Positions 1,074 to 62,521 of a DNA stretch of 64,000 nucleotides are shown here, in pieces. The translations under genes and the position numbers were made by a program. Every line of letters begins with the position of its first letter. Position 1 is the stretch's first letter. The notes under the pieces are model-generated. The model was not told the DNA's origin. It was given only the letters and a program-made list of their open reading frames with translations, and ran no database searches. The DNA is from Bugula neritina (Eukaryota; Animalia; Bryozoa): positions 6,418,741-6,482,740 of the forward strand of contig OZ037768.1 in NCBI GenBank assembly GCA_964035545.1, given 5' to 3'.

Positions 1074-4000
1074 ATGGCTGAAGATCAGTCACCTTCCATC
1101 GGTATTCAAGAAGATGAAGATATTAGTCAAAATTCTGTGGCTGGTGATGATTTAAACTCTGGATCAGATTCCGAACAATCTCCCTCCCTACCCGACAATA
1201 AGAGTGATCATGAAACTAAGAGTAGGCCTGCTATAAGTACATTGTGTTTCTTTTTTCATTTATTTGCTCAATTACATACATTCATACTGCTGTTTGTTTT
1301 GAGCCTTATTAAGAACATTGACTGCTATTGTTATAATTTTCAGATTTAGGGTTGATGTGCTATCCAGAGAGTCTATTTATCTACTATAGAACTGCACCAG
1401 GATAAGTCGAGTGAACGAGTATATTTTATACACAACTATACATTACAAAAACACGATACATTATTTCTAAACAAGTTACACATCTAATCTATTTCACACT
1501 CTAGCTTCGACTGAGTTAGCAGCGGGAAACTACAATTGCTGCTAACTATCAACTACGCTAATTGGTTATCCATTGTTCCGGGTCAATTGCGCGACCCTAC
1601 ATGTTGTGCTGCTGGTAGTTCCACGAACCACCACACCGCCCCCACCAGCAGAAAGCCATCTTTCTGATAGATATATAAAAAAAAACATTCATTGGTAACC
1701 GCATACATCAGTGGACAAAATAATACATAATATACAGGAAGAGACATAATAATAGACAGAATCATTATAACGATCCGTTGCATACAATTGGCCAGCTGTA
1801 GATAGACGAGGAATACTAGCTAGCTGTGGTGTTAGACAGGGGATAACCTGTTAAGCAGTCAAACATTTACATGACATCTTGGCTTCTCCCAAGAGGCGGA
1901 GTTGGAGTACTCCGGGTAGTCTAACTAGAGTCCTTGTTGGGCACGCCGGTGCTTGGCTTGGCATGTACGCAGTTTCCGTTTCATACGGCATACGGATCCT
2001 TTTAGCTGGAAGAGTCCTGTTGTAGTGTTAAGTAGATCTGGTGCCAGCTGGGTGAACTCTTCTTGTAATCGTAGGAGGCGTTCTTCTACTGTGGCTAGGC
2101 GTACTGGGTCTGGGGACGGTGTCCGTCTGCGGCGCAGGGGTGGACTGGGGGACCTGGTCCGTCTCTTCGCCGGGGTATGGGAGATCTCTCCTTCTTCTGG
2201 ATATGTAGTTTCCTCGGGGGTGTATGTAATTGGAGGGCGGTCAGACACCAACGGGGATTGTTGGCGGGCGTTGTCTAACACACGTTGGAACCCCGAGGAT
2301 AGAACGGCTAATAGCATGGCCTTCTTCACCAGAGGTCGTATATATGTGAGGAACTCCGGGTACAGCTTAGCGTCGACCACATAGTTTTCTCCAGGGAAAC
2401 AGCCCGCCGCTCTGTGTCTGGTGACGGGGTAGGGATACACATCATTGTACCCGCAGGGGCAGAAGGTCAGTAGGAGATGAGCATTGACGTGTAGTTTAAG
2501 GGAGCGGTGAGAGGCGCAATCTTCACCACAGATCTGGCATCTCGTCCGTCCTCTGGACCCCCAGGCTGTTTCTATTTCTTCTTCGGTTTGTGGAGACACC
2601 CACCGCCAACGGCGGCGTAGTGGCTCAGGCCGGTCACCACTAGCATAGTCCTCCGGATACGGAGCGGGAAGTGTTCTATCCCGTACCCTGGTTGTAGCGG
2701 GTCGAGTGTAATCTGAAAAAGTTTCAACAGTGTTAGTACAGTACACTGCTGTGTTGTCAGCTTGAACAGCTTGGCAACTCCTAATTCAGTTACCTCGTAG
2801 AGATTAATGATAGTGACTAGTCAGATAGAACCGTATTGCAATGAGATTATAAAAATCTCTAAGTCAAACTGAGTTCTTACTACGGTATTTCACTAACCTA
2901 TCTCCAGCTCGATTGACTCAGTGAGTCAGAGCTGAGCGATGCAATCTAGTTTCGTATTAAGATATAGTTAACTCACCCCACGATCTGTTGTCGTAAGACA
3001 TACTGAATATGTGAAATGGTTTAAACTACTGCTTAGAAACACGTCTACTCTTGACTGCATCAGCGTATGAAAAGATCGAGCAACGTGGTTGGGGTGCGTG
3101 ATTAAGACTTTGTGCACCCGGCGGATGAATTTTGTTTCTATTTCCGCCGATACAAAAGTTGATATTTCCGTGGTGTTGACAACTCCCACATTTGCTCGAT
3201 TCTTTTCTCGTACGGTTTTCCCCTAGACTTTCATGTGTGCCGCTTTTAACGCAGTCACATACGAAGTCCTTCAAGTATGCGGGGGGTTGCCTCGTACGCT
3301 GTCCCCTTTCTAGGGGGGGTGACACGCTTGCCGGTTCGTTAGTAGGGGCCTCTAATGGCGTCTCTACTTCACCGTCAGCGGTCACCTCTTCTTGTTCTCC
3401 GGATGGAGCCCCTCCCTCCGTGGGGGTTTGCACTTCCGGAACCGGCTCGGTTTCTGGAAGTGATGGAATTAGACTTGGCGGTGGCGGACACGCTTCTGTT
3501 GACAAAAGCTGCTGCTCCTCTCTCACCAAGTTTTCTTCCCGCGGTATGACCACTTCGTATTCAGGTCCATGCCGCCGTCGCCCGCGCGTTGTTGTCTGCC
3601 TCCTGGGCTCTAACAACGGGGGGGCTTCTCCCACTCCGCCGGGGCTAGCCCAATACGGTTTCAAGCGAGACTCATTCTAGATAGACACCTGTCCTGAGCG
3701 CTCAATCTTGTACGTATGATTGGGCATAGCCTCGACGACCACGTAGGGGCCTACGAACTTAGGCTTCAGCTTATCAGCCTGTCCGCGGCGCCTACGGTAA
3801 TTGACCATCCACACCTTATCTCCCGTTTGATAGAGAGGTGGTTCATCGGAATCTTCGTGCCGCACCTTCCACTGCTGTTGACGCAGTATATCGTGTGCGG
3901 CCTTCATCCGTTCCACTAGTTCACTGGCATACTCGTGAACCGAGTTGTCTTGCTCTGGAACGTGATAGGTGAGATGGTCAGGGACACGAGTCTCTCCCGA

Positions 4001-7000
4001 GCATCAAGAGGTTTGGGGTCTCACCAGTACTGGTGTGTGGGGTGCTACGGTATGCACGCATGACTTGCGGCAACACCGTATCCCATTCCTCTTGACCTCG
4101 TCCAAGGAGGAGACTCCGGAGTGCGTCACCTAGCATCCGGTTGTTGCGCTCCACCACCCCGTTACCTTGAGGGTGGTAGGGGGTGGTCCTGCTCTGATTT
4201 ACTCCCCAGAGGTGGCAAAGGTCGCTCATCAGTTGAGACTGGAATTGAGCGCCTTGATCAGAGTGTATCTGTTCGGGAAGCCCAAAATAACAGAATACAT
4301 GTTGGTCTAGTGCCCTGGCCACTGTCGGGGCTGATGCATCTGGGATAGCCAGAGCATCCGCCCACCTAGTAAAGTGGTCGGTTAGTACTAGGATCCAATT
4401 ATTGCCTCTGGGGGTCAGGGGCATGGGTCCGACCAGGTCTACAGCGACTACTTGCCAGGGCCTACCAGCATATAGCCTCCGCCGTCCTGCTTCACCAGGG
4501 GGGCGGCTATGCTTACTGGCCTGGCAGATCTCACACTGTTTGACTCTGAGCCGGACGTCACGCTCCATCTGCGGCCAATACCACCGGAGTCGTAATTTGG
4601 ATATCACTCGCTTGACCCCTGCGTGGGACTGCTTGTGAGTATCCCAAATCAACTCACGGCAGATGGCTGTGGGGCAGACTACCCTCTTCCTTTCCGGGTG
4701 TCTGCCGCTGGCAGCTAGAGAGATGGTTAGCAACCCATCCTGCCCGATCCGCAGCGAGTCCCAACGCTGACAGTATAGCCGGAACTCGGCGCATCCCTGT
4801 CGTATGCGTTCCTCGCTGGGTCGTCGCCCTTCCCTTTTGGCCCGGTATATGTCTGCCACGACTCCAGGCAGCTCTTCTTGGAGCTTCTTCAGCTCTCGAA
4901 CATTACCGGCCAGTACAGGGTTGGCGCGGAGGTTTTGTACATCCTCCGGGGACTCATCAACTCCTTGCCTGAGTTGACCTTGATCCCAATCAAACGGTGC
5001 TCCGTGATGAGCCAGCGTCTCCAACTCGCATCGTGGGGGACCTCCATCCCTCCTCTCGATGTTGAGACACTGTTTGCAACCTCCGTCAGGTCGGCGACTC
5101 AACCCATCCGCATTGCTGTGTCTCTTGCCCGGTCGGTGTTCGATCCGGTATGAGAATTCAGCTAGGATTTCGAGCCACCGTGCGACCTGACTAGAGGGCT
5201 CTGCTCTCCTGCACAACCAGATCAGCGAGGCATGATCCGTACGCAGCCGGAACTTCCTGCCATATAGGTATGGTCTGAAGTGCTTCACTGACTTGATTAC
5301 TGCCAGCAGCTCCTTGCGGGTAGTGCAGTAATTTCGTTCAGCGGGAGAGAGAGACTTGCTGTAGTAGGCTACTACTACCTCTCGGCCTTCCTGCACTTGT
5401 GACAGCACAGCGCCAACATTCTGGTCACTGGCGTCCGTGTCTAGGATGTACTCCAGAGTGGGGTCTGGGTAGGCCAAGATGGGCGCCGTTAGTAGGCAGC
5501 CCTTGAGGCGGTCGAACGCTTCTTGTTCGATTGGAGTCCACTGCCACGTCACTCCCTTTGCGGTGAGCCGGTTTAACGGCTGGGCTATCCCCGCAAAGTC
5601 TGGTATGTATTGCCTGTAATACCCTACCAGCCCCAAGAAAGCCCGGAGTCCGGTCAAGTCTTGGGGGGTGACCCAGTCTTCTACTGCCCGTACCTTTTCG
5701 GGATCCGTTGCCACGCCGTTTCGACCGACAACGTGCCCCAGGTACTTGACCTCCGGCTGCAATAGAGCGCACTTGGAAGGTTTGAGCTTAAGACCGGCAC
5801 CTCGGAGTCTCTCGAAAACCTCCTGCAGACGACTGACATGTGTCTCGAAGTCTGGAGAGATTACGATGACATCATCGAGGTAGACCAGCAGTGTCTTCCA
5901 ATGGAGTCCACTAAGGACTTGTTCCATCAGCCTCTGGAAGGTGGCTGGGGCGGAGGTTAACCCGAAGGGCAGCACCTTCCACTTCCACAAACCGTCCCGT
6001 GTGATAAACGCCGCTTTCTCTTGGGCGTCGGGACTCAGAGGAACCTGCCAATAGCCGCTTAGCAAGTCTAACGTACTGAAGTACTTGCTGCCGGCTAGGG
6101 CGTCCAATGACTCGTCAATACGAGGTAGAGGGTAGGCGTCCTGTATGGTTACGCTATTGAGTTTGCGGTAGTCCACACAGAACCGCCAACTGCCGTCTTT
6201 CTTCCGGACCAGTACGACTGGCGAGCTCCACGCACTATGGGCGGGCTCTATCAGTCCCCGGTCCAGAAGATCCCGTACTTGTCGGCTAACCTCCTTCTCT
6301 TTCTCCGGCCCCAGCCTGCGCGTGGGCTGCCGGACAGGGACTGTCCCTGCAGTCAGCGGTATTTCGTGTCTGACAATTCCAGTCAGTCCCACGTCATGCT
6401 CTCCGCTGCTGAACACATCACCGTAGTCGCGTAGTAACTTAGCCATAGCTTGGCGTTCCCTGTTACTCGCGCAGCCGCCACTGGCTGTTTCATATAACTC
6501 TCGGAGATGTGTTGGGACTGCCCCTCGTCCCTGAATAGGGTGTTGAGGGGGTGCCTCTGTCGCATCATCCAGCGACGGGCCTACGTCTCCCTCCTGAACA
6601 GAGTGAAAACGGCCCAGCATCGACCCAGCCGGGAGCTTGATAGGCTCGGTGAAGGGGTTGATGCACTGCACTAAGATCTCCCCTTGCTCAGTCAGCTGAT
6701 TCAGACTGCTGGCAAGTTGGATCTTTTCGTGCGCGCCTTCAACCACCCCGAGTCCAGAGATCCGGCTACTATTCACCCTGCAGTGAATGGTAGCCCGGGA
6801 GCGGCCTGGTATGGTACGGTTGCGTACCACTTGCACACCTCCCACTAAAGGGCGGCCGAACTTGTCGACGCAGGCGAGTTCCCGCCCGGACATCATCATT
6901 GCAGATCTGCTAAAATCTATGTGACATCCGTGCCGTTTAAGGAACGGCATCCCGAGGATAGCATCCTCCTTGAGCTGACTGACGATGAACGTCTCTTGGA

Positions 7001-10000
7001 TCGTTTGATCGCGGACTCGTCCCGTCAGCTCAATTATACCATAGAAGGGAAGGCACGACCCATCAGCTAGGGTGCCGTATTCCCCTTCGTATGCTTCCAT
7101 CTCGCCCCTGACCCTAGCACTGAGGGTGTCGAAGAGTTGGCGGCTTAAGAGGTTTGTGGTACAGCCCGAATCAATGAGAAAAGTAACAGCTTTGCCTTCC
7201 AGTTTACCGGGCAAGAAATAGCTGTTCCCATGGGGCTGCACCTGAACTCTCCCTTCAGGCCTTACTCTCGCAGGGAGTACCTCCCTCGCTTTGGGTTGCG
7301 AAGGAGGTCTCTTGGGGCGGTGATAGGTAGGCCTCGGGGGTGCCGAGGCTAGATTCTCAGCTACCTTTGTGTGCTCCCATCCAGATTCTTGGACTTGTAG
7401 CCCTGTGAATCTGTTGTGAAGGGGCATAGAAAAGGCAGCCGCGGGGCGAAGCCCCTTGCTGGTCCGTCGTGGCTGTTGCCACTGTTGGTTGCCAGTACGC
7501 GGTACCCGTCTGGGTGACCTGCGTTTCTTCTTCCCTAGAGGTTTCATCGTCGGCCCGCGGAAGGTGGGAACATCTGCGGGCCGCGGTAGTTTAACCCCTG
7601 ATTTAGGAAGGGACAATATCGGCGGAAATGTCCTTGATTTCCGCACTCCCAGCAAAAACTGACTGTTTCTCCCTGTGGCGGCGCCGATGGCCGCATGGGC
7701 TCAGGGGCGGTACTCACTGGGTTTTGTGGTGTCAGTGTTGCTATCAGCTTGGCTAGCATGTCCGTCATTTGAGTGACTTTTGATGCCGTCGCCAACTGGG
7801 ACACGGCAGCCGCGGCGGGGGTTTCCTCCCCTTGTCCCGCGGCCGTGTCTGCGCGGTCTATCTCCACTTGGCGGGAGCTTCCGCGACTTTTATGCATTTG
7901 ATTAGCTAGGAGGTAAGCTTCCCCCTCAGTCAGAGCATCTTCAACGGTGGTGACTCCCCTAGCTAGAAACTGGTGGTGGAGACCCAGATCGTCGACAGAT
8001 GCTATGAAAGCGTCGAGGGTGTACCTCTCGCGGTTGACTGGGGGCAAGTCGCTGTACGCGATCTGTGCCAGCTTCATGACCGCGGCGGCATGCTCTCGCA
8101 GCGGGGTGCGGGGATCACGCCGCAACCTCTGCAATCGGGCCCTGGCATCTGTAGCAGAGAGGCCAAAGCGGGCCCGCAGAGAAGCAAAGATATTATCAAT
8201 GTCTACGCCCAGCCCATAGGGCTTGGCTTTGTCCATCAATGCCATTCTAAGCTTCAGCAGGGCCACCCTAGGGGGCCACTGAGCGACGTCCATTACGTCG
8301 CTAAACTCTTGGATAAATTGTTCCACCTCCTCTTCACCCGTGAAGGTGGGTGCCTTTAACCTGTAGCGGTCTTCAGCTAGTTCTCGCGGAACCCTTCGCT
8401 CTTCTACTACATGGTTAACAGGCATTGTCTCTACAGCATTGTCTCTACGCTCACCTTCGATTGCCGGTGGTTGAGTTCCAGCATTTTCAGTCTCCATCTT
8501 GGATGCACGATCCCACTGCTGCCACCACTGTTATAATTTTCAGATTTAGGGTTGATGTGCTATCCAGAGAGTCTATTTATCTACTATAGAACTGCACCAG
8601 GATAAGTCGAGTGAACGAGTATATTTTATACACAACTATACATTACAAAAACACGATACATTATTTCTAAACAAGTTACACATCTAATCTATTTCACACT
8701 CTAGCTTCGACTGAGTTAGCAGCGGGAAACTACAATTGCTGCTAACTATCAACTACGCTAATTGGTTATCCATTGTTCCGGGTCAATTGCGCGACCCTAC
8801 ATGTTGTGCTGCTGGTAGTTCCACGAACCACCACACTATTTACAAAACTATTTTTTCGAAATCTCTATTTATTTTTAATAGCAATATCTCAGAAGTTGAA
8901 TGTTATGAAGAGCAATTATTAAACTGACTTGACAGAGTTTCTCATTCGCACACAATGTATGTTATGTGCTGCAGATAACAGAAAAGGTCTTCCGGACACT
9001 AAAAGGGACCAAAACCTTATAGATGAGGAAAGAGTTCCAGTTGAGCACAACTCCGAAGAAACATCATTTTCTACCAAAACTAGTGATCATAGCATAGAGC
9101 CCAAAACACAATCTGACAATGACAACAAAATTGTAGATAGTTTTGTAACTAACTTAGAGACTGTAGAAGAAAATAACAGAGATTCTGCTGGGAATACATC
9201 AGAATATTCAGAGGCACTCAAACATGTAAAATCAAACAAACAATTATCACCAGATGACAAGAGTGTTGATGATTTAGGTATGGATTATCTTGCTTATTTG
9301 TAACTTTATGATCTTGTGACTTCCTTGTCCATAATATCAATTTAAGGGCATCATGTGCAAATTTAATCTAGCCATTTAAATTTTGGCTTCAGAGCATGTT
9401 TAAAGTAGATGTAAGGGTAGGTGTTAAATTTAAAACATAATGAAATGCTGATGGGTTGTTTGAGTAAAAATATGAAGTTAATTCCTGGACATTTTAATAT
9501 TTAGCTATTAAATCAAATTTTCACACTGCAGCTATGACCCAGTATTACTTGATAAAAGCAAAATATAACTTTAGTTGTTGGTTATACGACCGACATTCTG
9601 ACAAGTACTCTCTTAATTTCCAGTGTAAAATGTGTCAGCCTTTTTATCTCTGTATTTTTATTTTCAATTCTTTGCAGAAGGTACAACAGAAGAAAAGAAT
9701 GAAAACTCAGAAGTTGATATTCAAGTTAGTTATAGTAATAATCCTCCTGTTTTCAAATCTTGTAATAAAATAAATATTAAACCATTGATTACTTCAAAAA
9801 CTGCTTTTAAAAAATTGTCCTGCTCATTTGTAGATGAAAAATCCAACTAGTTTAGAAAATGCGGAAGATAATATTGAATTAGACTACGACATAGACTTAG
9901 CCCAAGATCTTACTAGTGCTGATCTGGTACAAGGGGACAGTAGTCTGGGTGCCTCATCTGCTCTTGAAGATCAACAAAAAGAAAGTGACCAGCTTTCAGA

Positions 10001-13000
10001 CACTGGTGAAGTTGGTATTCAGTCTGCTGGTCAAAAAGTGACAGTTTCAGCTAAGACTGTTGCTACTAAAGGAAAGAAAAAGGCAAAGAAACCTTCAAAA
10101 GATGTAGGTCAAGTGGATTTTCAGTATTTTGTTTTCAAAAAATAGTTCATAATGCCGTGCAAAAATTTGGCATTGATGAGTATAAATTATATCACATGCA
10201 TGCAACGTGCTGTACCTTTAGCTTTATTTCCTAATTATTTGATCCATTTAGCAGCCATGACTGCAAAGTAAGCGCTTGTTTATGTATGCATGTCTACACT
10301 TACCTAGCCATGCACTTTTCATTAGTTTTTCATAGGTTAATAGACAGAACACAACTTTGGGTCGTGATTATTTTGGTTATTGAGAAAGTTTCACTGTGTG
10401 TGATACTATTAGCCTTATATAATATGGTTTTATTTTAATTAAAAAAGAGTTGTTTGATTTACAGTAGTGTTCATAATAATTATCAAGTTGTCTTGTACAC
10501 TGCATCACATCTCTATATGTATATATGAGCAGGTGGATAGTGGTGAAGATGGGGAAGTGCTATCAGACTCTGACGGGGAGATCAGCTCTACTGACGAGGA
10601 GGAAGGAGCCATCAAGGTCAGTTTTATAGTATAGAAATGTTTTACTAATGGTTACTATATTACACCACGCCGTTTTTATTTACTATCAAAATAATTTCAT
10701 TTCAATATTTTGATAATTGAATTTCAATATAATTTAAATCAAGATGGTATTTAAGTTTTATGTTTAGTGAATGAAGACTAGTAATTAAAACTTTCAAGTT
10801 ACATTTTTTCATAGCCAGTGAATTGTTCATTCACCAAGTGGACTTATTTGTAAATTAAACTAAACAGCACAATTAACTACATATTCTGTCATCACAATTT
10901 TACTTGTCACTGCGGTTCGCAGTCTTCTTGTAAAACTTTTTGGAATTATGCTTTGTTTTTATCAAAGTCATTCATGCTTTTACTTACTTAGTCATTTATA
11001 TTAAATGGAATTTGGCTGTAATGTGTTCTAAGATGGCAAAAACTTTATAATCAATCGTATAAGATTTTAGTAAAAACCTGATCTTGTTTTAATTAGAGAG
11101 GTTAATTAGCTATTTCATAATATTGGAAAACTGATGAAAATATTTGGATATTTCTGCTAAAAATTTCTCCAATTTTTATACGAACACAAATTATAACAAA
11201 TCTCCATACTTCTAACCTTCTTCCATACACATACCATTAAAGAACACTGTATAGAACTTAGCATATATGATGGTATGTATTTGTTTGCTTATTCGCATTT
11301 GTGTGTAAATTCAGGATGAAGCTGAGGAAGGAGAAATTCAAGATGGAAGAAACTTCAATTCAAGGAGTCAGCTGTGTCGGTTCTTTGCCCGAGGTTTGTG
11401 TACCTGGGGGTATAGCTGTCGGTTTCTTCATCCGGGTATCAATGACAAAGGTAAGTTCGTCACGTGTCTTTGAGACTAGGAGTTTAGATACTTTTTTTCT
11501 CTACTTAGCACCACCTCGAATCGTTTTATCATGTGCAAAGTTACTGAAAACTTACGAATGACCACCTCTAAGAATTAATATAATACATTTATTATATAAT
11601 ACTATGTATGACTCATCAGCTATGAGTAAGGTGCAGGGGTTACCCAGTCAGAAGTGCTCGCCCAGGCCTTAATAATATGAAACTTTGGTGTTCGGACACA
11701 ATTGCTCTTATGTCTAATTTAAAGTACTCAATGTTGAGCTATTTGTAAATAGTTTGTGTCATCAACTATGGGATTTGTCTTCCCTTGTAGTTATTGCTTT
11801 TGCTGAAATATTTAACATATAGCTCACGTTACATGTTTAGGTAACTACCAGCTGATAGAGCGACCTGGTATGAGACCACCACCTGGGATATACCGTCCTC
11901 CTGCAGAGTCTGACAAACAGGAAGAGGAAGTTGAGCCACAACCCGAGGAGGAAGACCCGCCAGTACCCGTAGAGCCACCTAAACCAGAAACACCCTGGGA
12001 GAGGGGTCTGCGGCAAGCCAAAGAGGTAAGTTTATTGTTGTACACAGAACCTTATGTTTAATAGAGTGAATCTGTAAAACATTTTGATGTATGTGTTGCA
12101 TGCTAATACTCGGGTGTATTGTTCTAACAAGCATGAATTATTTTTATTTTGTTTGATGAAAATAAATGGCAAAAATAATTAGCACAAATTTGTTGAACCA
12201 ATCATATAAATATTCCAATATATTTGCTGTTTTACACCCAGGCTCTTAAAAGGGCGAGTCGGAAAAAAGAACTGGAATTAGATATTGAAGACAAAAAGTT
12301 AAACATGACCTTGGATGCTAGGGTCAGGGATGGCGATCAGTTTAGAGATGACCCTTATTACGATAATCTCGACTAGTAAGTCTTTCGATTAGTAAGTCTT
12401 GAAATGGTATAAGCAGGACAGAAAGGAGGTGATGAAAATTCTTAATTTAAATGTGTATCCTTGCTGGTTTCATGTTGATTTGTTTTTGCTATAAATATTT
12501 GTCATTTGTTTGCTGTCTTAGTGATGAACTGGACCCAATACAAGCCACCACATTTGAAGAGTACAGTAAGGAGGATAATTGGGAGCAAGCTGGTTTTGAG
12601 GAGTCATTTGACGTAGAGTGGACGCAGGCAAACTACAGCTTACCACATGTATGTACTTTCAAAAATTCAGGTGTATGCTGAGAAAACTTCTACCTTTAAG
12701 AAGTGTATTATTTTGAAAATGGCTATGGTTTTCAAATTTGAATTCACCAATACCTATCATGTAGTTTCATCATTAGGGTATAAAGATCAGCTGCATTTTG
12801 TCCTGCGAAATAATTCTACTTTGAAGTTTGTTCATTTTTCAATTAGTTTTTATGCAAATCTTAATTATTATTTGGTGCAGATGCATGTGCCTCCACCTCC
12901 CAACCCAATGGAAATGCAGTGGAGAGAAGACAGAATGAGATCCGATGGCCGTAGAATGTACGACAGAGGTGGAAGCAGGTCACGGCATCGAAGCCCTCCA

Positions 13001-16000
13001 AGGTATTCAGATAGCCCTGTTTGTTAGTTGTGGTGGGAATAAAAGTAAAGAATAAAAAGCAAAAATTTAAAAATAGTGAATTTTTTGGTTTTATTTGTTG
13101 ACACTTCATCAGTTTTATGCAAACATCGATATTTTAGATGTTTCTGGAATAAACAAAGTAGGCATCTCTTAAACTTTATTTGTGTTTTTTATATTATATA
13201 TGATCTAATACTCATATTATGTTTGTATATGTTAGTAGAAATAGCAGGAGAGATTATAGAGATAATCGCCCTGAAAGACGGGGTCTTAACAGACAAGCCT
13301 TTAGTTCTGATGGATGGGTAGATCCTTGGCAGAGAGTGAAACCAGAGGATAGAAGAAGGAACAGGAGACGGTCTAGGTAAGAACTTTATTCTACCAATAT
13401 GCCACACTCTAACAAAATATCTCCAATATATTATGTGCACTATTCATAACCTGTAAGGACATGACAGCTTCCAGTTCTATACAGCATACTTGATACTTAT
13501 TCTAGCGTCTAGCTTACAGTATCTGATAGTCTATCTTGTACAAGCAACAATTATTAGATTATCAATGGCCTAAGGGTTATTAAATTTTGTTTAGGATGGT
13601 ATCTTTGTATTGTGTTAATCAATCAACTTCTCATGTATTGTAGTTCTGGATCCTCATCCTTTTCCTCACTCAGTGATAGCAGTCGTCAATCTAGTGCATC
13701 TCCCTTTTCTTCCAGGTAAATTATGCGGTTCTACTTTCATGGCAGCGCCATATCGTTATTGCTGATTTGAATAAAGTTGGTATAGGGAAAGCTATTTTGA
13801 AAGCATGTATGTGAGCTTTGCTTTCTGCAGTTAGTGAAATCTAATAGACTTTCACTGTATATTTCAGTCTACATATTTTTTTCATTTGGTTATATTTGTG
13901 TTGCAGATCTCGAAGTCGTACGAGAACCCCAACTCCATTAAGAAATATTGCTAAACCTAAGAATTTTGTAACGCAAGGCAATTCTAGACCTGGTGATAAA
14001 AGAAGCAGGGATCAAACTCAACCTGACGGTGCCCAGGATAACAGACCTGTGAGAAGAGGTCCGGAATGGCCTTCTGGTAAATCTGACTTTTGACTTTTAT
14101 GTGGAAAATTGTTATTCTAATTTAAAAAAACTTGTGTATGTAGTGTACTACTGTGTGTACTGTGTAGCGTGTTACTGTGTAACGCACTATCTACCGTGTG
14201 GTTGCTTTGCACTTATCAATGTAAAAATGGGCATTGCGAATGAAGCTTTTGCTAATCTCATTCATTTTTTAATAATTGTTTGAAATACTCTCTGGTTTCA
14301 ACAGTTGTCTGTCAATGCTGTAAATGTATAGCTGGTTCTTGTGCCTAAATATATAACGGGCATTTGAAACAAATGGCAATGTGTTTGAATTAATTTTATA
14401 TCAATGTTAATGATGATGGATTATTTACTGTGTTCCTTTACTTTTTACTTTTTAAATCGTATTTGTGTTGGATTGTTTATCAACTTTGATGATAGCATAA
14501 TTCTAATGTAATTTGCTATAAAATGTTGAGCTTGAAATATGCTCAACATTTTGGATAAATTAAACAGGATAAAGACACAGGTGAATCTTGTAGGACAAAT
14601 TTCTAACGGAGAGAGACCTCCTCTCTTAGGTAACCGAAATAGACAGACTGATCCTGTTGATAAGAGTAGTAGAGATAAACAGGCAGGAGTGTCTGGTAAC
14701 ATACCAGATGCCAGATTGTCTCGCAGAGATGTGCCACATCCTTCTAGAAAAAATAAGAATAAGTTTAAAAGGAACAGTTCATCTGGCAGGTGGGACTATC
14801 TTACTGTATCCCCCACTATTTCACTATTCCAACAGTTTTACTGGTGTCGGTGTATTTGTAAAACACTATGTTTGATGAAGTAAAATTTAGATATATCACT
14901 AATCCTGGTAACAATGGCTGTTCTTCTAGTAGGTGTCGGAGATACTGACATTAAATTCAGTTTTCCAGCACATGGTTTCATATAATATTTAGAAGGTGAC
15001 CAAACAAGCCCTTATTCTCATTTTAGCAGCTCGTCAAGTAGTAGTAGCAGCTCCAGTTCCAGCAGATCAAACTCTAGCAGTAGCTCAGGCTCCAGTGACT
15101 CCAGTTCCTCTTCTGGATCTTCTTCTGACAGCAGCAGCAGTGATTCTAGTGGCAGCGAGAGCGATCAAATCTATTCCGGCATGAGTAAACCTAAAAGTAT
15201 GTGCGCTCTAGTCAGTCAACTGAACCTAGATGTTAATTTACTAAATTTACATACATTTTATTCGGAAATACATAACTTAATCTACTAAAGCTGATTTATG
15301 TTATATTTATTTTCTCAATGCTGCCACAGTTTTTGTTTTTCTAAAATTCTTTGGTGTTGTGGTGAGCTCTTGCTAAGTTTGTTTCTGATAAACTTGTGCA
15401 TAAAATATTGACTATTCCTTTTTAAGAAGAAAAGCGAAAACAGAAGAAGCGTTCAGACACAGCTCCTCGGCCAGTCAAACCTCCCACGTCTGCTTCAACA
15501 AAGTTGTCAGCAGTTACTAAAAAGTTAAATACTCCGGAGAGCTCAATGCGTGAAACCACCACTAGCACTAGTAAAGCAGGCATAAAGCTTACATTAGTAA
15601 ACAAGGTAACATAACATTTCCAGAGCTGCATGATTGTTACCTACAAGTCCTTATGAAAGGCGGTATTATCAACTTTTTAACCATATTGTAGACCAAAGTT
15701 CCGTCTAAAAAGAGAGTACTGGACTCTCCTCCACCTGAAGAGTTACCACCTTCTAAGAGAGCTAATCTACCAATGCCAGAGAAAGGTCAGTATGAAATGT
15801 CTCTTAGCCTGTTCAGTTTATCACTACGGTGGTTCATTCTATAACATTTTGAGAACAATTTTCACTGCTGATATCTTTACATTTTGTACAGTTGAAAGAC
15901 CCAAGACTGTAATAATCAAACCCGGCGCTGTGGCTGCTGCTAAGGCTAAAGCACAGCCACCCAAACCTGTGGCAGCACCAGTGGCCAAGGCTGTAACCAA

Positions 16001-16145
16001 ACCTTCATCGAAACCGGCAGCAAAACCCAGCAAGCCTTCAGCCACCACACTCGCCAAAAAGTCTCAACCCAACAGACGAGAAGAGCTTCTGAAACAGCTT
16101 AGAGCTGTGGAAGATGCAATTGCTAAAAAGCGATCAAAAACTTGA
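1074..16145 (+). CDS. ZC3H18: Zinc finger CCCH domain-containing protein 18 (CBC-NEXT/PAXT adaptor), multi-exon
   Basis: Phase-consistent GT-AG exons: 1074-1236, 8975-9277, 9678-9725, 9834-10103, 10533-10616, 11315-11450, 11841-12025, 12242-12375, several more, last 15892-16145. CCCH finger CRFFARGLCTWGYSCRFLHPGINDKGNY, ETPWERGLRQAKE, RS/Ser-rich middle, and C-terminal RREELLKQLRAVEDAIAKKR are all hallmark ZC3H18 segments. Confidence 0.93.
1329..1635 (-). repeat. 3' LTR (307 bp)
   Basis: Identical by eye to 8529-8835 (offset exactly 7200); minus strand reads TGTGGTGG...TATAACA. Confidence 0.97.
1636..1646 (-). other. Polypurine tract (PPT)
   Basis: Minus strand GGTGGGGGCGG directly abuts the 3' LTR. 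Confidence 0.8.
1925..2712 (-). CDS. Retrotransposon ORF3 (non-Env): C2H2 zinc finger / Arg-SP-rich / coiled-coil protein; predicted exon 2 of a spliced gag-leader mRNA
   Basis: Open frame 2746-1925 with CQIC-x12-H-x3-H, then C-x-C-x12-H-x4-C, KRRTRSPSPPLRRRRTPSP and a heptad helix (LATVEERLLRLQEEFTQL). No ATG at the start; acceptor TACTAAC...TTTTTCAG ends at 2713. Confidence 0.8.
3026..7595 (-). CDS. pol: Pol polyprotein (protease, RT, RNase H, integrase); integrase C-terminus disrupted in this copy
   Basis: FLIDSGC (PR), WRFCVDYRKLN and YLDD (RT), DTDAS...KELLA...TDH (RH), HHCC plus DLVG/DQG/ERNN (INT). GPY motif lies in a shifted frame (3677-3916), followed by an in-frame TAG at 3677-3679 and a tail with RTRQPPAYLKDFV to 3026. 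Confidence 0.95.
7544..8497 (-). CDS. gag: Gag (capsid plus CCHC nucleocapsid knuckle)
   Basis: 317 aa starting 12 nt after the PBS; APTFTGEEEVEQFI...W...LRARFG capsid-like region; CWECGNQGHFRRYC knuckle. Confidence 0.93.
   Translation of the reverse strand: METENAGTQPPAIEGERRDNAVETMPVNHVVEERRVPRELAEDRYRLKAPTFTGEEEVEQFIQEFSDVMDVAQWPPRVALLKLRMALMDKAKPYGLGVDIDNIFASLRARFGLSATDARARLQRLRRDPRTPLREHAAAVMKLAQIAYSDLPPVNRERYTLDAFIASVDDLGLHHQFLARGVTTVEDALTEGEAYLLANQMHKSRGSSRQVEIDRADTAAGQGEETPAAAAVSQLATASKVTQMTDMLAKLIATLTPQNPVSTAPEPMRPSAPPQGETVSFCWECGNQGHFRRYCPFLNQGLNYRGPQMFPPSAGRR
7551..7595 (-). promoter_or_regulatory. -1 programmed ribosomal frameshift signal (slippery heptamer plus GC stem-loop)
   Basis: G_UUA_AAC in gag frame (7595-7589), 5-nt spacer, then CGGCCCGC...GCGGGCCG 8-bp stem; pol is in the -1 frame across the overlap. 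Confidence 0.85.
8510..8527 (-). other. Primer-binding site, tRNA-Leu type
   Basis: TGGTGGCAGCAGTGGGAT (18 nt), 1 nt from the 5' LTR; complements a tRNA 3' end ATCCCACTGCTGCCACCA resembling metazoan tRNA-Leu(AAG/UAG). Confidence 0.85.
8529..8835 (-). repeat. 5' LTR (307 bp)
   Basis: Identical to 1329-1635; contains an Inr-like TCAGT and a TATAAAATAT element on the minus strand. Confidence 0.97.
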
Positions 16146-22276: not shown

Positions 22277-25109
22277 ATGGCTCTGCACATTGAGACTCCA
22301 CTGATAGCTAGCACAGCCATTTCTTGCATTGCCTCGTGTAAGGTCTGGCTAAAGTTGGAGAACTGCCAACCTAGTGCATCATTTAAGTTGCGAGGTATTG
22401 GTGCACTGTGTATTGAGGTAAGCTATTTCTATGGTGTTTTTCTTTTAAAGTTTAGCTTGAAAATTTATCCAAATGTATAAAATAACCAAACTTTAAAGCT
22501 TTTTCTCATTGAAATTAAAGTCTGTCCCACCATATTTCACAAAATTCTTTCTTTCAACTTTTGGTGTTTGTAAGTTTATAATTAACTAAATAAATTCAGT
22601 CAGCCTTGTAAGAGTAGACACAAGCTCAAATTCTGAACAAAGTCTTAGGCTTTTTGCTGTTATTGTTGTTTTGTATTCTATATTACTCAAATTATTCTTG
22701 CATTTCTCAACACAAGTCAATGCATCAAGTCTATCACAAAACTCTTGTTATGTAACCATATAGCTAGAGAATGTTTTATTTATTTAGCTGTAATGTTGCA
22801 GTCTAAGAATGCTGGGAAGAAGAAGATCATCAGCTCATCTGGAGGTAACGCAGGTCTGGCAGCTGCATATTCCAGTAAACTCTTGAATATGCCATGTAAG
22901 ATCTTTGTACCTGGGAGCACCTCTCAACATACTATCAAACTGCTAGAAGCCGAGGTTTGTTTTATTAGCAACCTTCAACCATTCCACACTTATAAGATTT
23001 TTGTGTGTGTATATCTTTATAATTTACTTATTTAAGCAGTCATTCAACTACTGAAGGTATTTCATTTTCTTCAAGTTAAAATATTTAAAAATAGCTTGGT
23101 TAGTGAAATATCATATTGCTGTAAATAGATCATATTTGTTATTATAATATAGACACGATTATAAACCTACAACTGGGTCGTTTTTACTCCGTGACTTCAA
23201 TTGCTCTTTAAACTCCAGTTACTTTTCCCTATATAGTCGCTATAGTTTGGAATTGTTCTCTCATATATAATCAGGGAGCCGAAGTACAAGTTGTTGGAAA
23301 AATTTGGGATGATGCTAATGCTGCTGCCATGGAGGAAATAAAAGCTAACCCGGACTATGCTTTTGTTCATCCCTTTGATCACCCAACTATTTGGTGTGTA
23401 CTTCAAGTATTTGATTGAAATTGTAATAATACTGCTGCCATGTTCTGATCTCATAATGATTTAAGTGAATGTTTTGTAGGAAAGGAAACAGCACTGTTAT
23501 TCATGAGATAAAGCATCAGCTGGGAAACATTGTTCCAGGCTGCATCATTGCATCTTGTGGTGGTGGGGGCTTATTGACAGGTAATAATATTGCTTTATAT
23601 ATTGCGACTGGTGGAGTTATCCTTCCAAACTAAATGTACAGTGATGTAGTTTGCCTTGCATTTTGAAAGTAAAATGTGTAAAATAAGATTCACTGGCATT
23701 TTTATGCAGGGATTTGCTTTAATTACTGTAACTTAAAGTAGCCTAATGATACACCTAAATTTAGACTAATTTCTCCAGAGTAGCTCATCGAAACATTATA
23801 ATGTTTATGTTTAGTCTCCATTTCTTTATACTTTGACAACAGTTGCATTTAATGAGTATTTTACAAGAAAAAACTTATTACAGTTTAGGCCATAAAGAAA
23901 GCATTCGAGCAGATTTTACAGACTTGACATATATGTACTGTGTTTCCTATGAGATAGCTAACTCTATCATACTGACTATCAGGCATCATACAGGGACTAG
24001 ATGAGATTGGTTGGTCTCATGTTCCAGTAGTTGCCGTGGAAACTGAAGGCGCTGATTGTCTTGCTGCTAGCGTAGCTGCCAACAAACTAGTCACACTTCC
24101 AGATATTACAAGGTGTGTCTATACTTTATATGAGACTAATGCTTCAAGTTACAAGCAAATCGTTCAGGTTTCAGTATAAGTGTAAAGCAGTGTAATAGAT
24201 ATGAAACCAACTCTGAGTTGTTCATGTCATTTGCTCGCAGTGCTGATGTAGAATATTTGTTGTAGTATTGCCAAGTCGCTAGGGAGTCGTACAGTATGTC
24301 AGCAGTTGTTTGACTACACTAAGGATCATAATATCTTATCACACACCGTCACTGATACAGCTGCTGTCGATGCCTGCATAAAATTTGCAGGTAAGGATTA
24401 TATTATGTAATTGAGCCTTCGTTATGTTTGGACATGGTCAACCTCATTAGGTTGACTTTAATTGTATTCTAGTGACTCATAAATCGATTTTTAAAGGAAA
24501 GAAGTAATCTCTAAAAAATATTAATTTTGTTTCCTGAATTATTACTTAAGACAAAAATATTAAATGATTTAAACAAATTATCAATATTTAAAAAAGAGTT
24601 GACAACTCCTAATTTGTTCGTATAGGTTGCTGAATAATTTACAAGTATACTATATATAAATATATTGTTAAATTATTATCTAAAAGTAATTTCTGTTGTA
24701 GGTTAAAGTTCAAAAACAATTGAATTATTAGTATTCAATGAATATATAACATAATTATGAATATATTGCATAATAAGTGTTTAGTAACCAATAAATATCA
24801 AGACATTAAATAGCAGATATATGTTGCTTTAATATCCTGTGGCTATGAGACAGTGGTAGTATACATGTGTATAATCTTACAATTTCTTGTATAAAAGAGT
24901 TCTTTCTTTCAGATGATCACAGAATGCTGGTTGAACCTGCATGTGGTGCGTCTCTAGCAGTCATTTATTCTGGAGAAATTCAGAGACTGCAAGAAACTGG
25001 CAAACTGCCAAAGGATCTGGATAATATTGTAGTGGTAGTGTGTGGTGGGAATAGTGTATCTATGGAAACTATGGAATCATATAAAATGCTAATATCTTCA
25101 ACTGCTTAA
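22277..25109 (+). CDS. SDSL: L-serine/L-threonine dehydratase (SDS/SDSL family, PLP-dependent), 7 coding exons
   Basis: KLENCQPSASFKLRGIG (PLP lysine), SSSGGNAG, HPFDHPTIW, GGGGL, VAVETEGA, LVEPACGASLA, VVCGGN; exons ~22277-22417, 22802-22954, 23275-23392, 23481-23580, 23983-24111, 24266-24390, 24913-25109. Co-ortholog of vertebrate SDS and SDSL. Confidence 0.92.
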
Positions 25110-32341: not shown

Positions 32342-35300
32342 TCAATTAATATGGTGATACATGTTCCAAGGTGGGTAACCGGGTTGCTGCATGGGATGTT
32401 GTCCAGTACTATAATAACTCTGAGAGGGATTGTACATGTTCTGTGACTCATGCATGTAGCCAGTCATGGGTGGTTGGACTGGTACTATTGGCTGGATAAG
32501 GTCTTGTGGTGGTGTGAGAGCTTCAATGGAGGGCTGATGGACGTGAGGTGGCATCATCGGAGGTGATTGTTTGTGAACTCTGTCGTACTTTACAGCTTCA
32601 GGACTTTGCTGCTGCTGCTGTGGCAAAGAAGTTTTTTGCAGGCTTTTATCATCATCTTGTCTGTTGAAATCGGAGTTGCTGGGCGATTGCAAGACATTTT
32701 CTTCATCGCCTGATCCCACTCCTTCACCTTCTGCTGCACTTTCGCCATTACTTGTTGTGGATTGTTTTGATACTTTCTTTTCTTTTGACCTTCTATTTTG
32801 AAACCAAATTTTAACCTAAAATTATTAGAAAAATAAATTGTTAAAAAGAGGCAACATTTTTCAATTCAAAGCATAAAAAAATGGCCACTTAATAAAAGGA
32901 AATATTTAAGCATGTATAGTTTGTCACTTCATGGCCACCAGCTATATCATTCAATACTGGCAGCTACCTCAGTCTTCGCTAGGTGTTGATAATATGGCTT
33001 GTGATGCCACTAAACCACACAAAAACATATTGATTATTTATAGCAGCAACAAAATTATAAAATAGGATTAGAATAATCTGGCATGTACACCTGCATAGAG
33101 TTGAGCAAGACACCTTACATTTGAAAGAAATTTTGAGATTAAGCAATTTCAGTATACATTTTCTGTCATTTTTATTGAGCATAGATTTCAGAGAAAAGCA
33201 GCTGCTAATGGCACTATTATAATGGTTGAATAACCATAAGGAATACCATATCTCTAGCATCGGCTGGTGTTACAGGCTTGAATTCATATTTAAACCTGTT
33301 GCCAAGCAATCAGTTCGCATTCAGGCAGGATGAATGGTTGATGTTGCCCACCATATAATCAGTGCCAGTTAATTCAACTCCAACATATAATTATGTGCCA
33401 CAGGCATACATAGCAATTTACTCTATGAGAAGTTGCATACTCTGTAATTATATGTCTCCTAGCTACTTGACAGTAGTCACTGCCTTGTGTGATTCTTACA
33501 GAAGCAGTAAACTTGACATGAAATAGACCTACTGCTGCGCTACACAATAAGACAACTGGCTTTCATGCAGCTGGATTTTAAAGAATCCTGGCAAACATTT
33601 CCCTTACATTTATAGGCGAAATAACATGTTGTTATGATTTATTTTGCTGCATGTACTATCTATTGTCAGTTGTGTGTTCCAATCATTATAAATACACGTA
33701 TACTAAAAAGATATATAAATATAATTTTTAATGGTGATTAGATTTTTTCAATCAGCTTATAGTGCGTTCTTGTCACAAGTTATAAAACTTCTCGTATGCT
33801 ATTTAATGATTCCATGTTTTTATTATACATAATTGGATATTATGTTTAACATTTTCCCATTAACTTCAAGAAACTGCTACAAATTGACTCACAGTCTAAA
33901 TTTAGAAAACCTAACTGAATAAAATTATCATGAAACTACCGTTCAAATCAAATTATTGAATGCAAATTTTGACCAAAAGCATAAGGATTTGAGCTATAAG
34001 CAAATGCTAAAAGGTCTTAAAACTTGGTAAATATGTGTTTACGGCATTTAGCAAATTGCACCTATTTATGGATTTATTTTAACTTTGATATTTGAATTAC
34101 TAGTTGGTGGTTACTAAAAAAACCTTTAAACTTGAATTTAAAACTTTGTAAAACCTACGGGCTAAAGTTTATAAAGTAATGCGTAAAATATGGAAATATT
34201 ATATATAATACCCCATTAACAGAATTAAGATTCCTATGGGTAATTATGTGAATAAAAAGGTAAAAGTAGGCCTAACTAACCCCTGGGTTCAACGAAGCTA
34301 ATGAAACTAACAACTATTTTATTGGAAACAAAAGTACTTGATTCAAGCAGTAAATATTTTATGTATAAAAAATATTTCTAGTATTCAGAATATTTGTGTG
34401 GAAAGCAAATAAACTACAGCTAAATTATCGTATGACATGCTTGAATTTCTAGACCTAATAATTCAGATATCCTGAGAAAATATACACCCCAGTTTTTACA
34501 ATGTAAGAACTGCCACTGTTCTAGATAGAGAGATGGAAGCTAAGAGCATTTCTAACACTGAAACTATTTGAGATTTAGCGCTTGTCATTTGTTTAGCAAG
34601 CTGGATATTTTTTTACACATCTGAATTATATTTCCGACTGTATACAAATTAAGAATGGTTGGTGCTCATTTCAAAGCTCCGCCATTTTGAAAGTCCATCA
34701 AAAATAAATAATTATACCTGAGTTTGAGTGAGACCTAAGGTTGCAGCCAACTCAGCTCTCTCTGGCAAGGCTAGATAATTTGTCACCATAAATTTTCGGT
34801 TCAACTGATCCAATTGCATACTGGAGTATATCGTTCTAGGTTTTCTAGATTTTTTCCCATTAGCAGTGCCATTTCGACCTGTAATGGTCCCTTCTACACT
34901 TTTACCTATGAAGTAAAAGTGTTACACATCATCACATGACTAAAAAAATACAACCTTATAATGCAGGTAAAATATTCATACAATACTTAAAGACAAATGC
35001 TACATTTAACTATTAATAAATATATGGTTGAATCATTTTGAATTAAAGACTATACAAATTAAATAAGCACTTTGTCATAATATATGGAAATAATAAAGAA
35101 TAATAAATACTTTCAACAGAGTAAACTTTCAAAATTGCTTGTATAGAACTGAATATATTTACAAGCACTCAAAACAAACTAGAATTTTCTAACAGCTACC
35201 TGTACCTGTAAATTAGAGCTTCCATTAAGGCCATAAAGATACCTATTACCATTAAATTACTACAAGTTGAAATAATTATTATAATTACAGCCTTAATATT

Positions 35301-49684: not shown

Positions 49685-52600
49685 CTAACTTGTAGTAGAA
49701 ATGACTAGAGAGTCACCATTGAAATATTTACTAACAGCACTGCTTGCGTCAGAGTTTACGTCACTCCGTTCCTTGTATGAGGAGTTGGCCTGGAGAGAAT
49801 GTAATACAGTTTGGGGAGCTTTGCTCAGGTGTTCCTTGATAGAATGAAAAGAAAATGATTTGTTTACAATGTTTCTCTCCCTACCAGAACTAGTGGGTGT
49901 AGCATTGTCTGTACTGGTGGCGAGACCATTGCTAAACACTTCATCTGATGGCCTTCTTTTCTCTCGCCGACGACAGGAAGTAAAATGCTCTTTAAGATCA
50001 TCCTGGCAACAATAGAGTTTAGAACACCAGGGGCAACTTCTTATGCTCTCTGCAATAAAATAGAACAGGTAAATGTTGGCCATTAAATTATACAAATATA
50101 GGCAGGTTATAAAATATCATACATGCATACATAGTTGTGACAACAGTAGGTAATCAAATGTTGATCAAATCACTACAAGACAGCATAAAATAATTTTGTC
50201 CCCACTGGGATTCGAACCTGAGACCTCCGACTTGCAAGCAGGCGCGCTAAGCACTACACCACAGGAGCCACTGGGTAAACTCAATATTACACACATGCTT
50301 AAAATCATGCATTTAAATGTTTATGCTTACCTTGATGGTGCAAATTCAAATGGTTACTGTATTGGTTGAGAGAGGCAAACTCCACATCACATTTACTGCA
50401 GAACAGTTCTCCGTGATCTTCATTGTCACTGAGTGCTTCACTCTTGACTACTTTAGTCTTAGGCACAGACTTGTTGGTGTCGTAGTGTGCGGCAGACTGA
50501 GGTCGCTTCCTGCCTGCCAACTCGGTGGAGGCTGGGGAAGGTGAAGGTCGATACATACTGGTCAGCCCGCCGTGATGAGCAGATGAATGATTTACCAGTT
50601 CTGTTTCAAAGAAGAAGCTCTGCAGGCAATAAGCACACACATAACTTCTGTTAGTAATGCTGTGCTCTGAAGTGCAGTGATTCAGCAACGTCGCAGCGTC
50701 AGAAGTTGTGTACTCACATTTAGGACACGTCATACGATTACTAAACATAAAGTTATGAGCTACTAAGTGAGCTTGCAGCTTGCCTGAAGTTAGAAACAGT
50801 GCCGAACACAAATAACACTTGTGAGATTTATCATTCATATGAGATGTTAAAATATGAATTTTAATCTCATTTTCAGATTCACAGGATTTCGGACACTGTA
50901 TGCATTGATAAATCTTTCCACTGTTTCCAGATACATTTGGTGGAGATTTGTTATTAGCCGATTCAAATACTGAGTCATTCTTTGATTGGCTAATGCAGAG
51001 CTGACACAACGCTGCTTCCTTTCCACTCAGCTGACTAGGCATCATGTTTAACATCTCCCCACAACTAGAACATTTTACTCTACATACATGTCCGTCACTC
51101 TGCAGGTAAGACTCTGAGCACGCATGACACGTTTTTACTTTTTTGTCACATGACTTGCAGACGAGCTTACTACCTTTGAGTAAGAGCTGTGAGTGATTGA
51201 ACCTGCCTTGACACAAACTACAAATCTTTCCGTCTCCAAGTGCTATGCAGTTGTGTTTCTGATACTTCTCCTCCCGAGTAAATGTTAATTTGCACTTATC
51301 ACATTTCCAGAGGTCTTTGGTGATACTATCACAGGAGACGCATATATATGAGTCGAGTTTACAAACGAGTTCGGAGATTCTAAACGTCTTCTGGCAGTTG
51401 AAACACTGCTTCTGCATACATGCGTGGTTGTCTAGCTCGTCCATTGAAGCGAACTTGCTGTTGCACTCTGAACACCTGTGGACAGGCGACAAAGCACCAA
51501 GCTGAGAGCTAACACTCATTTTCTGATCTCTAGTCAGCCCTTTTGCAGCTGGTGAAAGAGCTGTGTGGAGTAAGCTAGGAGATCGAGGGGACTTGCAGTC
51601 AGGGGCGCCCGGGGGAGGGGGAAGGAGACGGTGGGGCAGAAGGATACTTGTGGACTGTTTTCTGGCTATCAAACACTCCTGGCACAGGAGAAACTGGGGG
51701 TTATCGGTGAGCTGAGCCGGCAAAGGTATGAAGTACGGACAGACTTTATTACAGGAGGCACACGACAGGGGTGACTTTTTCGGGAAATGGAACTCAGCGT
51801 GCAAATCTAATTCCACCTAATAAAAAACAAAAACAAAAAAATGTTCTTATTGGTACACAGAACTGAGCGATCAATGAAATTGTGCTTCCTAACTACACAA
51901 ACATTTTCATAAGTATCATTTGTTAACTATAATTAAAATTACTGAAAAAAGAAGCACAAATATATAGTTTTTATTCATTTCCAATTAGAATGCACCAATC
52001 ATATTATGGGTATCATTTTATTACAAAATACATAACGCTAAAAGATAAGATAACACACAATTTACAATCAGTAATTTCGCTAAAACATCATCACTATGAT
52101 ATCAAACATGCTAGATCAGTTAACAGTCAATCTATTGTTTAATTAGGAAGATAGATTATCACCTGAGATGTAACTCTATGCTTGCAAACACAGCATACGA
52201 CAGTGCTATCAGCTTCAACATGTAAGTGAGAATGTTTCAAGTATTCATCTATAGTGTTTATCTCCACTTGGCATAAAATGCATGGTTTGGTTGACGGAAC
52301 CTAAAATAGAACAATTGTAAATGCAACTCATTTTTTATTTTATAAATTACAAACAATACAGTAATGAAATGATCATGTATCACACTAAAACATGTATACA
52401 TCTTTACTAATGAATCTTATTCCAATGCAAATTTTAAGGATTCAAACTAACAACAGTTTACAAACTCTTAAAAAAATACTACTATATAATATTAATATAT
52501 AATACAATCGCAATAAAAAAACTACAGCTTCAAGTTTTAGAAGTTAATTAAATTAATAAAATTAAGAGTGCAATAAGAGTTGTCTTTCCATGGACTGTAC

Positions 52601-62282: not shown

Positions 62283-62349
62283 GGGTAGATAGATAGATTG
62301 GTAGGTAGGTAGGTAGGCAGGCAGGTAGGTAGGTAGGTGTGTAGGTAGG
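62283..62349. repeat. (GATA)n/(GGTA)n tetranucleotide microsatellite
   Basis: Directly visible tandem units adjoining the palindrome. Confidence 0.9.
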
Positions 62350-62521
62350 TATTATTTAACCTCTTCATATATTTATCCATCTATCTCACTATCTGTCTGT
62401 CTGTCTTTCTATCCATCTATCTACCTACCTACACATGTGTAGGTAGGTAGATAGATGGATAGAAAGACAGACAGACAGATAGAGAGATAGATGGATAAAT
62501 ATATGAAGAGGTTAAATAATA
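62350..62521. repeat. 172-bp spacerless palindrome
   Basis: 86-bp arms centred on ACACA|TGTGT (62435/62436), one mismatch (62388 vs 62483). Confidence 0.95.

Follow-up and report, generated by a model that had tools for sequence, protein, structure and literature searches.

Complex retroviruses of vertebrates (Retroviridae) express small basic regulators, Rev/Rex and Tat/Tax/Tas, from spliced RNAs. Among retrotransposons with long terminal repeats (LTRs), the Ty3/Gypsy element Cer1 of C. elegans makes CERV, a spliced, gag-led, nuclear accessory protein whose function has been shown and through which the element protects its unspliced RNA; excerpts of the published account describe a protein of 517 amino acids (aa) that is encoded in 5 exons, contains H, M and G-protein-like domains as well as a C4 loop and shows no obvious homology outside nematodes (PMC10309623). 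Excerpts of two further sources report that errantiviruses of the idefix subclade splice env-F from a donor within gag (PMC12992720), and that LTR elements of bdelloid rotifers carry non-Env third open reading frames (ORF3s) of GDSL, DEDDy, coiled-coil and transmembrane (TM) types (PMC5408684). Here we describe a Ty3/Gypsy LTR retrotransposon on the minus strand (1329-8835) of a stretch of 64,000 nucleotides (nt) from the bryozoan Bugula neritina (contig OZ037768.1, positions 6,418,741 to 6,482,740; hereafter the window). Past its pol lies an ORF3 that would be spliced to the first codons of gag, and whose predicted product is a soluble zinc-finger protein. That this Gypsy element has a spliced, non-Env accessory gene is real and well supported, and the coordinates that a first-pass annotation, a model's reading of the letters alone, had given for the gag ATG, donor, branch point, acceptor and ORF3 all proved exact (Table 1).

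As far as the available excerpts on CERV go, ORF3 resembles it in being a non-Env protein from a spliced RNA with an N terminus common with Gag (as in P0023 and the gag protein P0223, described below), and in having a Cys-rich putative zinc site, a helical zipper and a basic signal. It differs in having 276 aa, 2 exons, a place after pol and a double finger made of a C2H2-like and a C-x-C...H...C/H unit, and the H, M and G-protein-like domains are absent from the ORF3 model, which holds one zinc domain and one helix. We regard ORF3 as CERV/Rev-like by layout and as a member of neither family, CERV being compared from its published description, available in part. For Rev/Rex and Tat/Tax/Tas, no sequence or fold link to ORF3 was found. 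Drosophila errantivirus env-F is likewise a third ORF past pol spliced from a gag donor, but according to the excerpts it has a signal peptide, a fusion peptide and a membrane anchor, all three of which ORF3 lacks; of what defines errantiviruses, the spliced third ORF is present here (sites in phase, P0023) and the glycoprotein is not. The rotifer elements, like ours, are invertebrate Gypsy elements whose env slot is filled by a non-envelope gene, but their proteins are other ones, and the word "zinc" is absent from the main text of that source as far as it was available (PMC5408684). The main text of a metazoan env survey contains neither "zinc finger" nor "splic" (PMC13524379), and excerpts of two other papers hold nothing on ORF3 (PMC13228809, PMC2774666). 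No zinc-finger ORF3 of this kind was found in the full-text literature searched, with Repbase, Dfam, GyDB, subscription journals and supplements outside that search. The first-pass annotation had recognised no described equivalent; within this literature that stands for the protein family, which is apparently undescribed, but not for the architecture, which has a precedent in CERV. A third ORF past pol is usually taken for env, and here it appears to encode a soluble zinc-finger protein that is conserved and made by splicing, and whose family lies outside Pfam models, solved structures and the literature searched.

Evidence for the splice comes from a sister family, in which the protein P0023, opening with a Met leader, is identical to P0223 over its 14 initial residues and then continues as ORF3, the switch falling exactly on the residue after the acceptor in unspliced relatives. 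P0023 is the one protein among 180 of the ORF3 family that opens with at least 6 gag-derived residues; P0223 was found among the best 120 of 134 matches in a gag search. The contig encoding P0023 is 5,320 nt long, too small for both exons and a 5.7-kb intron, and in other proteins of that source the acceptor is read through without a break, so that the gene caller was evidently blind to introns. Given the short contig and the intron-blind calling, a spliced transcript or a reverse-transcribed copy is the simplest reading. These sequences indicate that splicing of the gag leader to a non-Env ORF3, as originally proposed, occurs in the lineage of the window element, and the same splice would be expected in the window copy itself. 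Across the donor lies the motif E-G-E, present in 23 of 31 gag leaders of at least 30 residues and of two leader lengths (among the matches listed), and it stays while leader length and sequence vary. Across 73 ORF3 proteins, a search with an exon-start pattern yielded at least 14 unspliced read-throughs carrying [FL]-S-[DG] (13) or L-L-D (1), both of which are compatible with a YAG acceptor; P0023, three internal matches and three unclear rows among the 21 matches listed were set aside. A separate protein, P0173, joins the gag of a close relative to an RNase H domain and is probably an internally deleted copy.

The window copy carries the corresponding signals. Its donor, AAG/GTGAGC (the slash marking the exon end), directly follows 8455, 43 nt into gag and in phase 1. 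Ten GTRAG sites occur on the sense strand of the element, and AG precedes only that after 8455; base composition predicts about one AG/GTRAG per whole element and 0.02 in the first 150 nt past the primer-binding site (PBS). On the acceptor side, 21 YAG sites lie in 3030-2560, a T-tract accompanies only that at 2713, and this site is in the ORF3 frame. A TACTAAC within the 25-nt band has a p of ~0.001, and phase agreement would arise by chance in 1 case in 3. ORF3 has an open frame spanning 2785 to 1925 (286 codons from stop to stop, 262 from the acceptor), and the in-frame junction 8455/2712 would give a product of 14 + 262 = 276 aa. The initial description of ORF3 as lacking a starting ATG needs qualification, as Met codons occur inside exon 2 at residues 133 and 244 and, in many sister families, also in frame close to the beginning of that exon. 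The hairpin predicted around the branch point has pair probabilities of 0.90-1.0, and the structure of the 3' untranslated region is not unusual (z -0.36). Two side observations on this hairpin are suggestive: all 4 relatives long enough for the comparison, two of them in another frame, have read-through peptides compatible with both of its arms (1-2% for shuffled peptides), and the sequence differences in run X2 include none listed in 2698-2766 and nine in 2627-2697.

Conservation across relatives indicates that ORF3 is a real, conserved coding gene of these elements. A search of 1.84 billion representatives gave 104 matches at E 0.001 or better. Close relatives number 65 (46-100% identity), with further ones down to ~27%. 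Compared with the window protein, 30 relatives average 58% identity across the core, 27% across the linker and 77% across the helix. A near-full domain was present in 108 of the 169 proteins examined; the C2H2 ligand set is kept in 90 of these 108, and the C-x-C...H...[C/H] set likewise in 90 (76 with C and 14 with H), so that the coding conservation expected at the outset is seen in both domain and zinc ligands. A quick tree (FastTree) of 83 domains contains a 54-member group that includes the window family (21 members) and a distant 29-member group. Five ORF3 matches lie on contigs exactly as long (at least 3.5 kb) as one with a gag match (by chance a mean of 0.22 and a maximum of 3), which hints indirectly at linkage.

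The only relative with its DNA read, L022, carries the ORF3 domain (hhalign probability 98.8%) together with a gag 38% identical to that of the window. In L022, ORF3 ends just before a polypurine tract (PPT) and an LTR, followed by nearly the same PBS, gag and the start of pol, so the same gene occupies the env slot in a distant Gypsy family, in agreement with the position first assigned to it. L022 was the one real member (1 of 28) among the 7 + 21 loci returned by a degenerate zinc-motif pattern. Searches with the ORF3 alignment found no related DNA among viral, metagenome and genome contigs, a pol query found no match among viral contigs, and neither an LTR-PBS pattern scan nor a phage tblastn gave a match. 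Two further features of L022 were seen: its ORF3 (L022:2348-4528, minus strand) is 726 aa or longer, a low-complexity stretch upstream of the zinc domain being duplicated, and the order of its contig, with a single LTR of ~720 nt between ORF3 and gag, may reflect a collapsed assembly or tandem copies.

AlphaFold predicts for the ORF3 protein a compact, confidently modelled zinc domain of ~120 residues (pLDDT 94, and pTM 0.86 alone), a disordered linker and a single 53-residue helix. No Pfam family scored above cut-off for the window protein. Finger 1, initially called a canonical C2H2 finger, is indeed C2H2-like, but it reaches 13.3 bits against a Pfam cut-off of 25.2, and C2H2 families are matched weakly by 6-7 of 46 members (E 0.01). 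Position 6 of its helix is hydrophobic and a TGEKP linker is lacking, features that argue against the classic tandem mode of reading DNA; the linker between the fingers is H-[FY]-x3-[FY]-C, and finger 2 is atypical (C-x-C...H...C/H). Judged by above-cut-off scores and TGEKP-type linkers, this is not a classical tandem C2H2 protein. Foldseek returned nothing at E below 0.001 from the PDB and viral models, and VIA-align matched the whole model only to generic coiled coils and the domain to nothing at Z of at least 5, which is no proof of a new fold; an Atlas search returned unnamed clusters and C2H2 families, as leads only. The end of the helix is Arg-rich, with at least 5 K/R in 30 of 31 aligned proteins. 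An RS-domain function through an Arg/SP tract was considered and rejected, the tract being family-restricted. The highest 19-residue hydropathy is 1.24, no signal peptide or membrane helix is present, and no Env family in Pfam matched, all of which bears out the early view that Env features are missing. The accompanying statement that there is no furin site holds in part: an RRRR run fits the furin pattern R-x-R-R, but it is not conserved and has no signal peptide alongside.

Since the whole of gag-pol forms an intron with consensus sites, the element must protect its unspliced RNA. We think it quite probable that ORF3 regulates the expression of its own element, at either the RNA or the DNA level. 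Tentatively, and with slightly less than an even chance, its product would be a nuclear Rev/CERV-like regulator of the element's own RNA that lets unspliced gag-pol RNA escape splicing or retention. LTR transcripts would first be spliced from 8455 to 2712 with removal of gag-pol, a step shown for the lineage by P0023 and presumed for the window copy. The resulting protein is predicted to fold as a compact domain holding two zincs, together with a long helix that is Arg-rich at its end; it would enter the nucleus, probably multimerise through the helix and bind element RNA, perhaps at the branch-point hairpin. The balance would then move to full-length RNA for Gag, Pol and packaging. The spliced RNA would retain the PBS and PPT and could itself be reverse-transcribed, which would explain the intron-less copy on the 5.3-kb contig. 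The non-classical fingers, the basic helix end and the branch-point hairpin (weak alone) fit an RNA-level switch best, a fit that we put forward with reserve.

If RNA regulation is true, regulatory accessory genes would be recurrent in animal LTR retrotransposons and not a C. elegans oddity. The broadest form of this proposal, which we hold more loosely and as a possibility with the odds against it, is that an old, widespread invertebrate Gypsy lineage is "complex" in the retroviral sense: its env splice would yield a double-zinc-finger protein not described before, which would attach to the lineage's own RNA, at a hairpin-gated branch point or some other element, and shift output from spliced to genomic RNA. 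Rev would then have been invented independently three times, in retroviruses, in nematodes as CERV and here, and some copies may have been domesticated in bryozoans. The element would offer a small testable system for unspliced-RNA retention and host-silencing evasion, and the domain profile offers a means of re-annotating invertebrate proteins now listed as "uncharacterised C2H2 proteins".

Several observations weigh against a spliced regulator acting on RNA. The splice evidence consists of one protein, P0023, from a sister family. The junction, which the first-pass annotation had proposed to look for in reads, was unseen for the window copy in either run: RNA run X1 gave 19 low-depth contigs, none spanning donor or acceptor, and run X2 gave no junction among 15 of 52 joints and no loose end at the acceptor, absences that prove nothing. 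L022 is without AG/GTRAG near its gag start, and the 5' end of its ORF3 is missing. The 53-nt hairpin piece is unremarkable alone (z -0.94; equalled by 84 of 500 shuffles). In ORF3, eleven single-base differences, counted without one adjacent pair, comprise 4 synonymous and 7 non-synonymous changes, mostly in the variable N terminus; they give no sign of purifying selection and at that shallow depth are uninformative. The Arg/SP tract, to which the initial account had drawn attention, is found in 2 of 31 aligned proteins and is not conserved. Finally, the structural matches, weak as they are, are DNA-binding tandem C2H2 proteins (best Z 3.7, root-mean-square deviation 3.0, 57 of 130 aligned).

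These last matches bear on the alternative that the same spliced gene acts on DNA or chromatin, as an LTR transactivator or an anti-silencing factor that dimerises via the helix. The profile of finger 1 finds DNA-binding C2H2 fingers among PDB sequences (best E 7e-6), the weak fold matches are tandem C2H2-DNA complexes, and retroviral transactivators likewise come from spliced RNAs; yet the domain has two fingers only, no TGEKP linker and an atypical finger 2, its basic stretch follows the helix whereas that of bZIP proteins precedes it, and every fold match has a Z below 4. We consider a DNA-level role rather unlikely, though not far behind the RNA-level switch, and a later or extranuclear role distinctly less likely. 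In the latter case the protein would serve particles or integration as a cofactor, or would use the helix surface to inhibit a host factor of small-RNA or decay pathways. Conservation of the helix at nearly every position, beyond the core positions, does suggest a partner surface, and in other invertebrate Gypsy elements ORF3 fills various non-Env roles, as far as the source is available (PMC5408684). The searches brought up neither an enzyme fold nor a known interaction domain, however, and distant groups have kept the zinc domain and not the helix sequence.

That a zinc-finger exon was captured from the host and travels as a passenger, or that the splice sites are incidental, is a very improbable explanation and largely refuted. 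In its favor, the three organism-named clusters among 30 proteins looked up were all bryozoan proteins of unknown function, and the relatives with names are annotated as proteins of host genomes, in some cases with isoforms and with the domain in two copies. Annotated bryozoan proteins with the double-zinc domain are P0074, P0167, P0120 (Watersipora subatra) and P0168 (Bugula neritina), and the domain is present twice in P0074, P0167 and P0103. These named relatives are, however, just 27-34% identical in the domain and may be domesticated copies or mis-annotated elements. Deep diversification, the same slot across 38%-identical gags, the kept frame and ligands and the precise spliced product all speak against a recent capture, which had been raised at the outset as a way in which the proposal could fail and which we reject. 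A highly divergent Env or small membrane fusogen is scarcely credible and we reject it, as the env-like position and splice pattern, including a donor inside gag as excerpts report for the idefix subclade (PMC12992720), stand against a soluble protein with a zinc-finger fold, no signal peptide or membrane helix and no Env Pfam family.

The remaining features place the element in Ty3/Gypsy: direct LTRs with TG...CA ends and a short target duplication, the placement of PBS and PPT, and a pol in the Gypsy order of protease, reverse transcriptase (RT), RNase H, integrase and then the SH3/integrase C-terminal domain (Pfam). The identical LTR pair and the ATAG target duplication point to a very recent insertion. 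The pol of the window copy is broken twice in the C-terminal part of integrase (a frameshift near 3990 and a stop near 3677) despite the identical LTRs. We take the PBS to correspond to tRNA-Leu. Two further observations concern the minus strand of gag-pol. In the gag-pol overlap (~7600-7550), TTAAAC is followed by a GC-rich inverted repeat, by eye a possible -1 frameshift signal, and at 6501-6863 a stretch of ~120 residues without a Pfam or PDB sequence match separates protease from RT.

Table 1. Positions of the features of the Bugula neritina element in the window.
Feature	Position	Strand	Remarks
5' LTR	8529..8835	-	307 nt, TG...CA ends, identical to 3' LTR
3' LTR	1329..1635	-	307 nt
Target-site duplication ATAG	8836..8839; second copy 1325-1328		4 bp
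PBS	8510..8527	-	downstream of 5' LTR; nearly the same 18-mer in L022
PPT	1636..1646	-	short, purine-rich; upstream of 3' LTR
gag	7544..8497	-	317 aa; CCHC knuckle at C terminus; ATG at 8497
pol	3026..7700	-	protease, RT, RNase H, integrase, SH3/GPY-F tail; -1 frame relative to gag
ORF3 coding exon 1	8455..8497	-	43 nt at the start of gag (14 codons + 1 nt); donor GT 8454-8453; junction position matched by P0023
Predicted intron	2713..8454	-	5,742 nt; rest of gag and all of pol
Branch point TACTAAC	2738-2732	-	upstream of T-tract
T-tract and CAG acceptor	2713..2720	-	CAG ends at 2713
Predicted 9-bp RNA hairpin	2725..2751	-	arms 2751-2743 and 2733-2725; TACTAAC in loop and 3' arm
ORF3 coding exon 2	1925..2712	-	double-zinc domain (~residues 30-152), disordered linker, 53-residue helix (209-261), Arg-rich end

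The element lies antisense in the apparent first intron of a host gene on the plus strand, with flanks at ~1073-1200 and 8974-9303. Judged by the exons in its flanks, the host is an animal. Pfam gave no match on the later exons of this gene (12617-13027 and 15681-16145), which by their motifs we take to be ZC3H18-like. Elsewhere in the window there are an exon of a PALP-family enzyme (22649-23035, plus strand), a homeobox exon (32342-32815, minus strand) that is presumably Dlx-like, and a multi-zinc-finger host gene (49685-60586, minus strand). Two minisatellites with 21-nt and 17-nt units lie at 59022-59483 and 53079-53418, respectively, and a 91-bp palindrome without spacer, 97% complementary, occupies 62345-62526.

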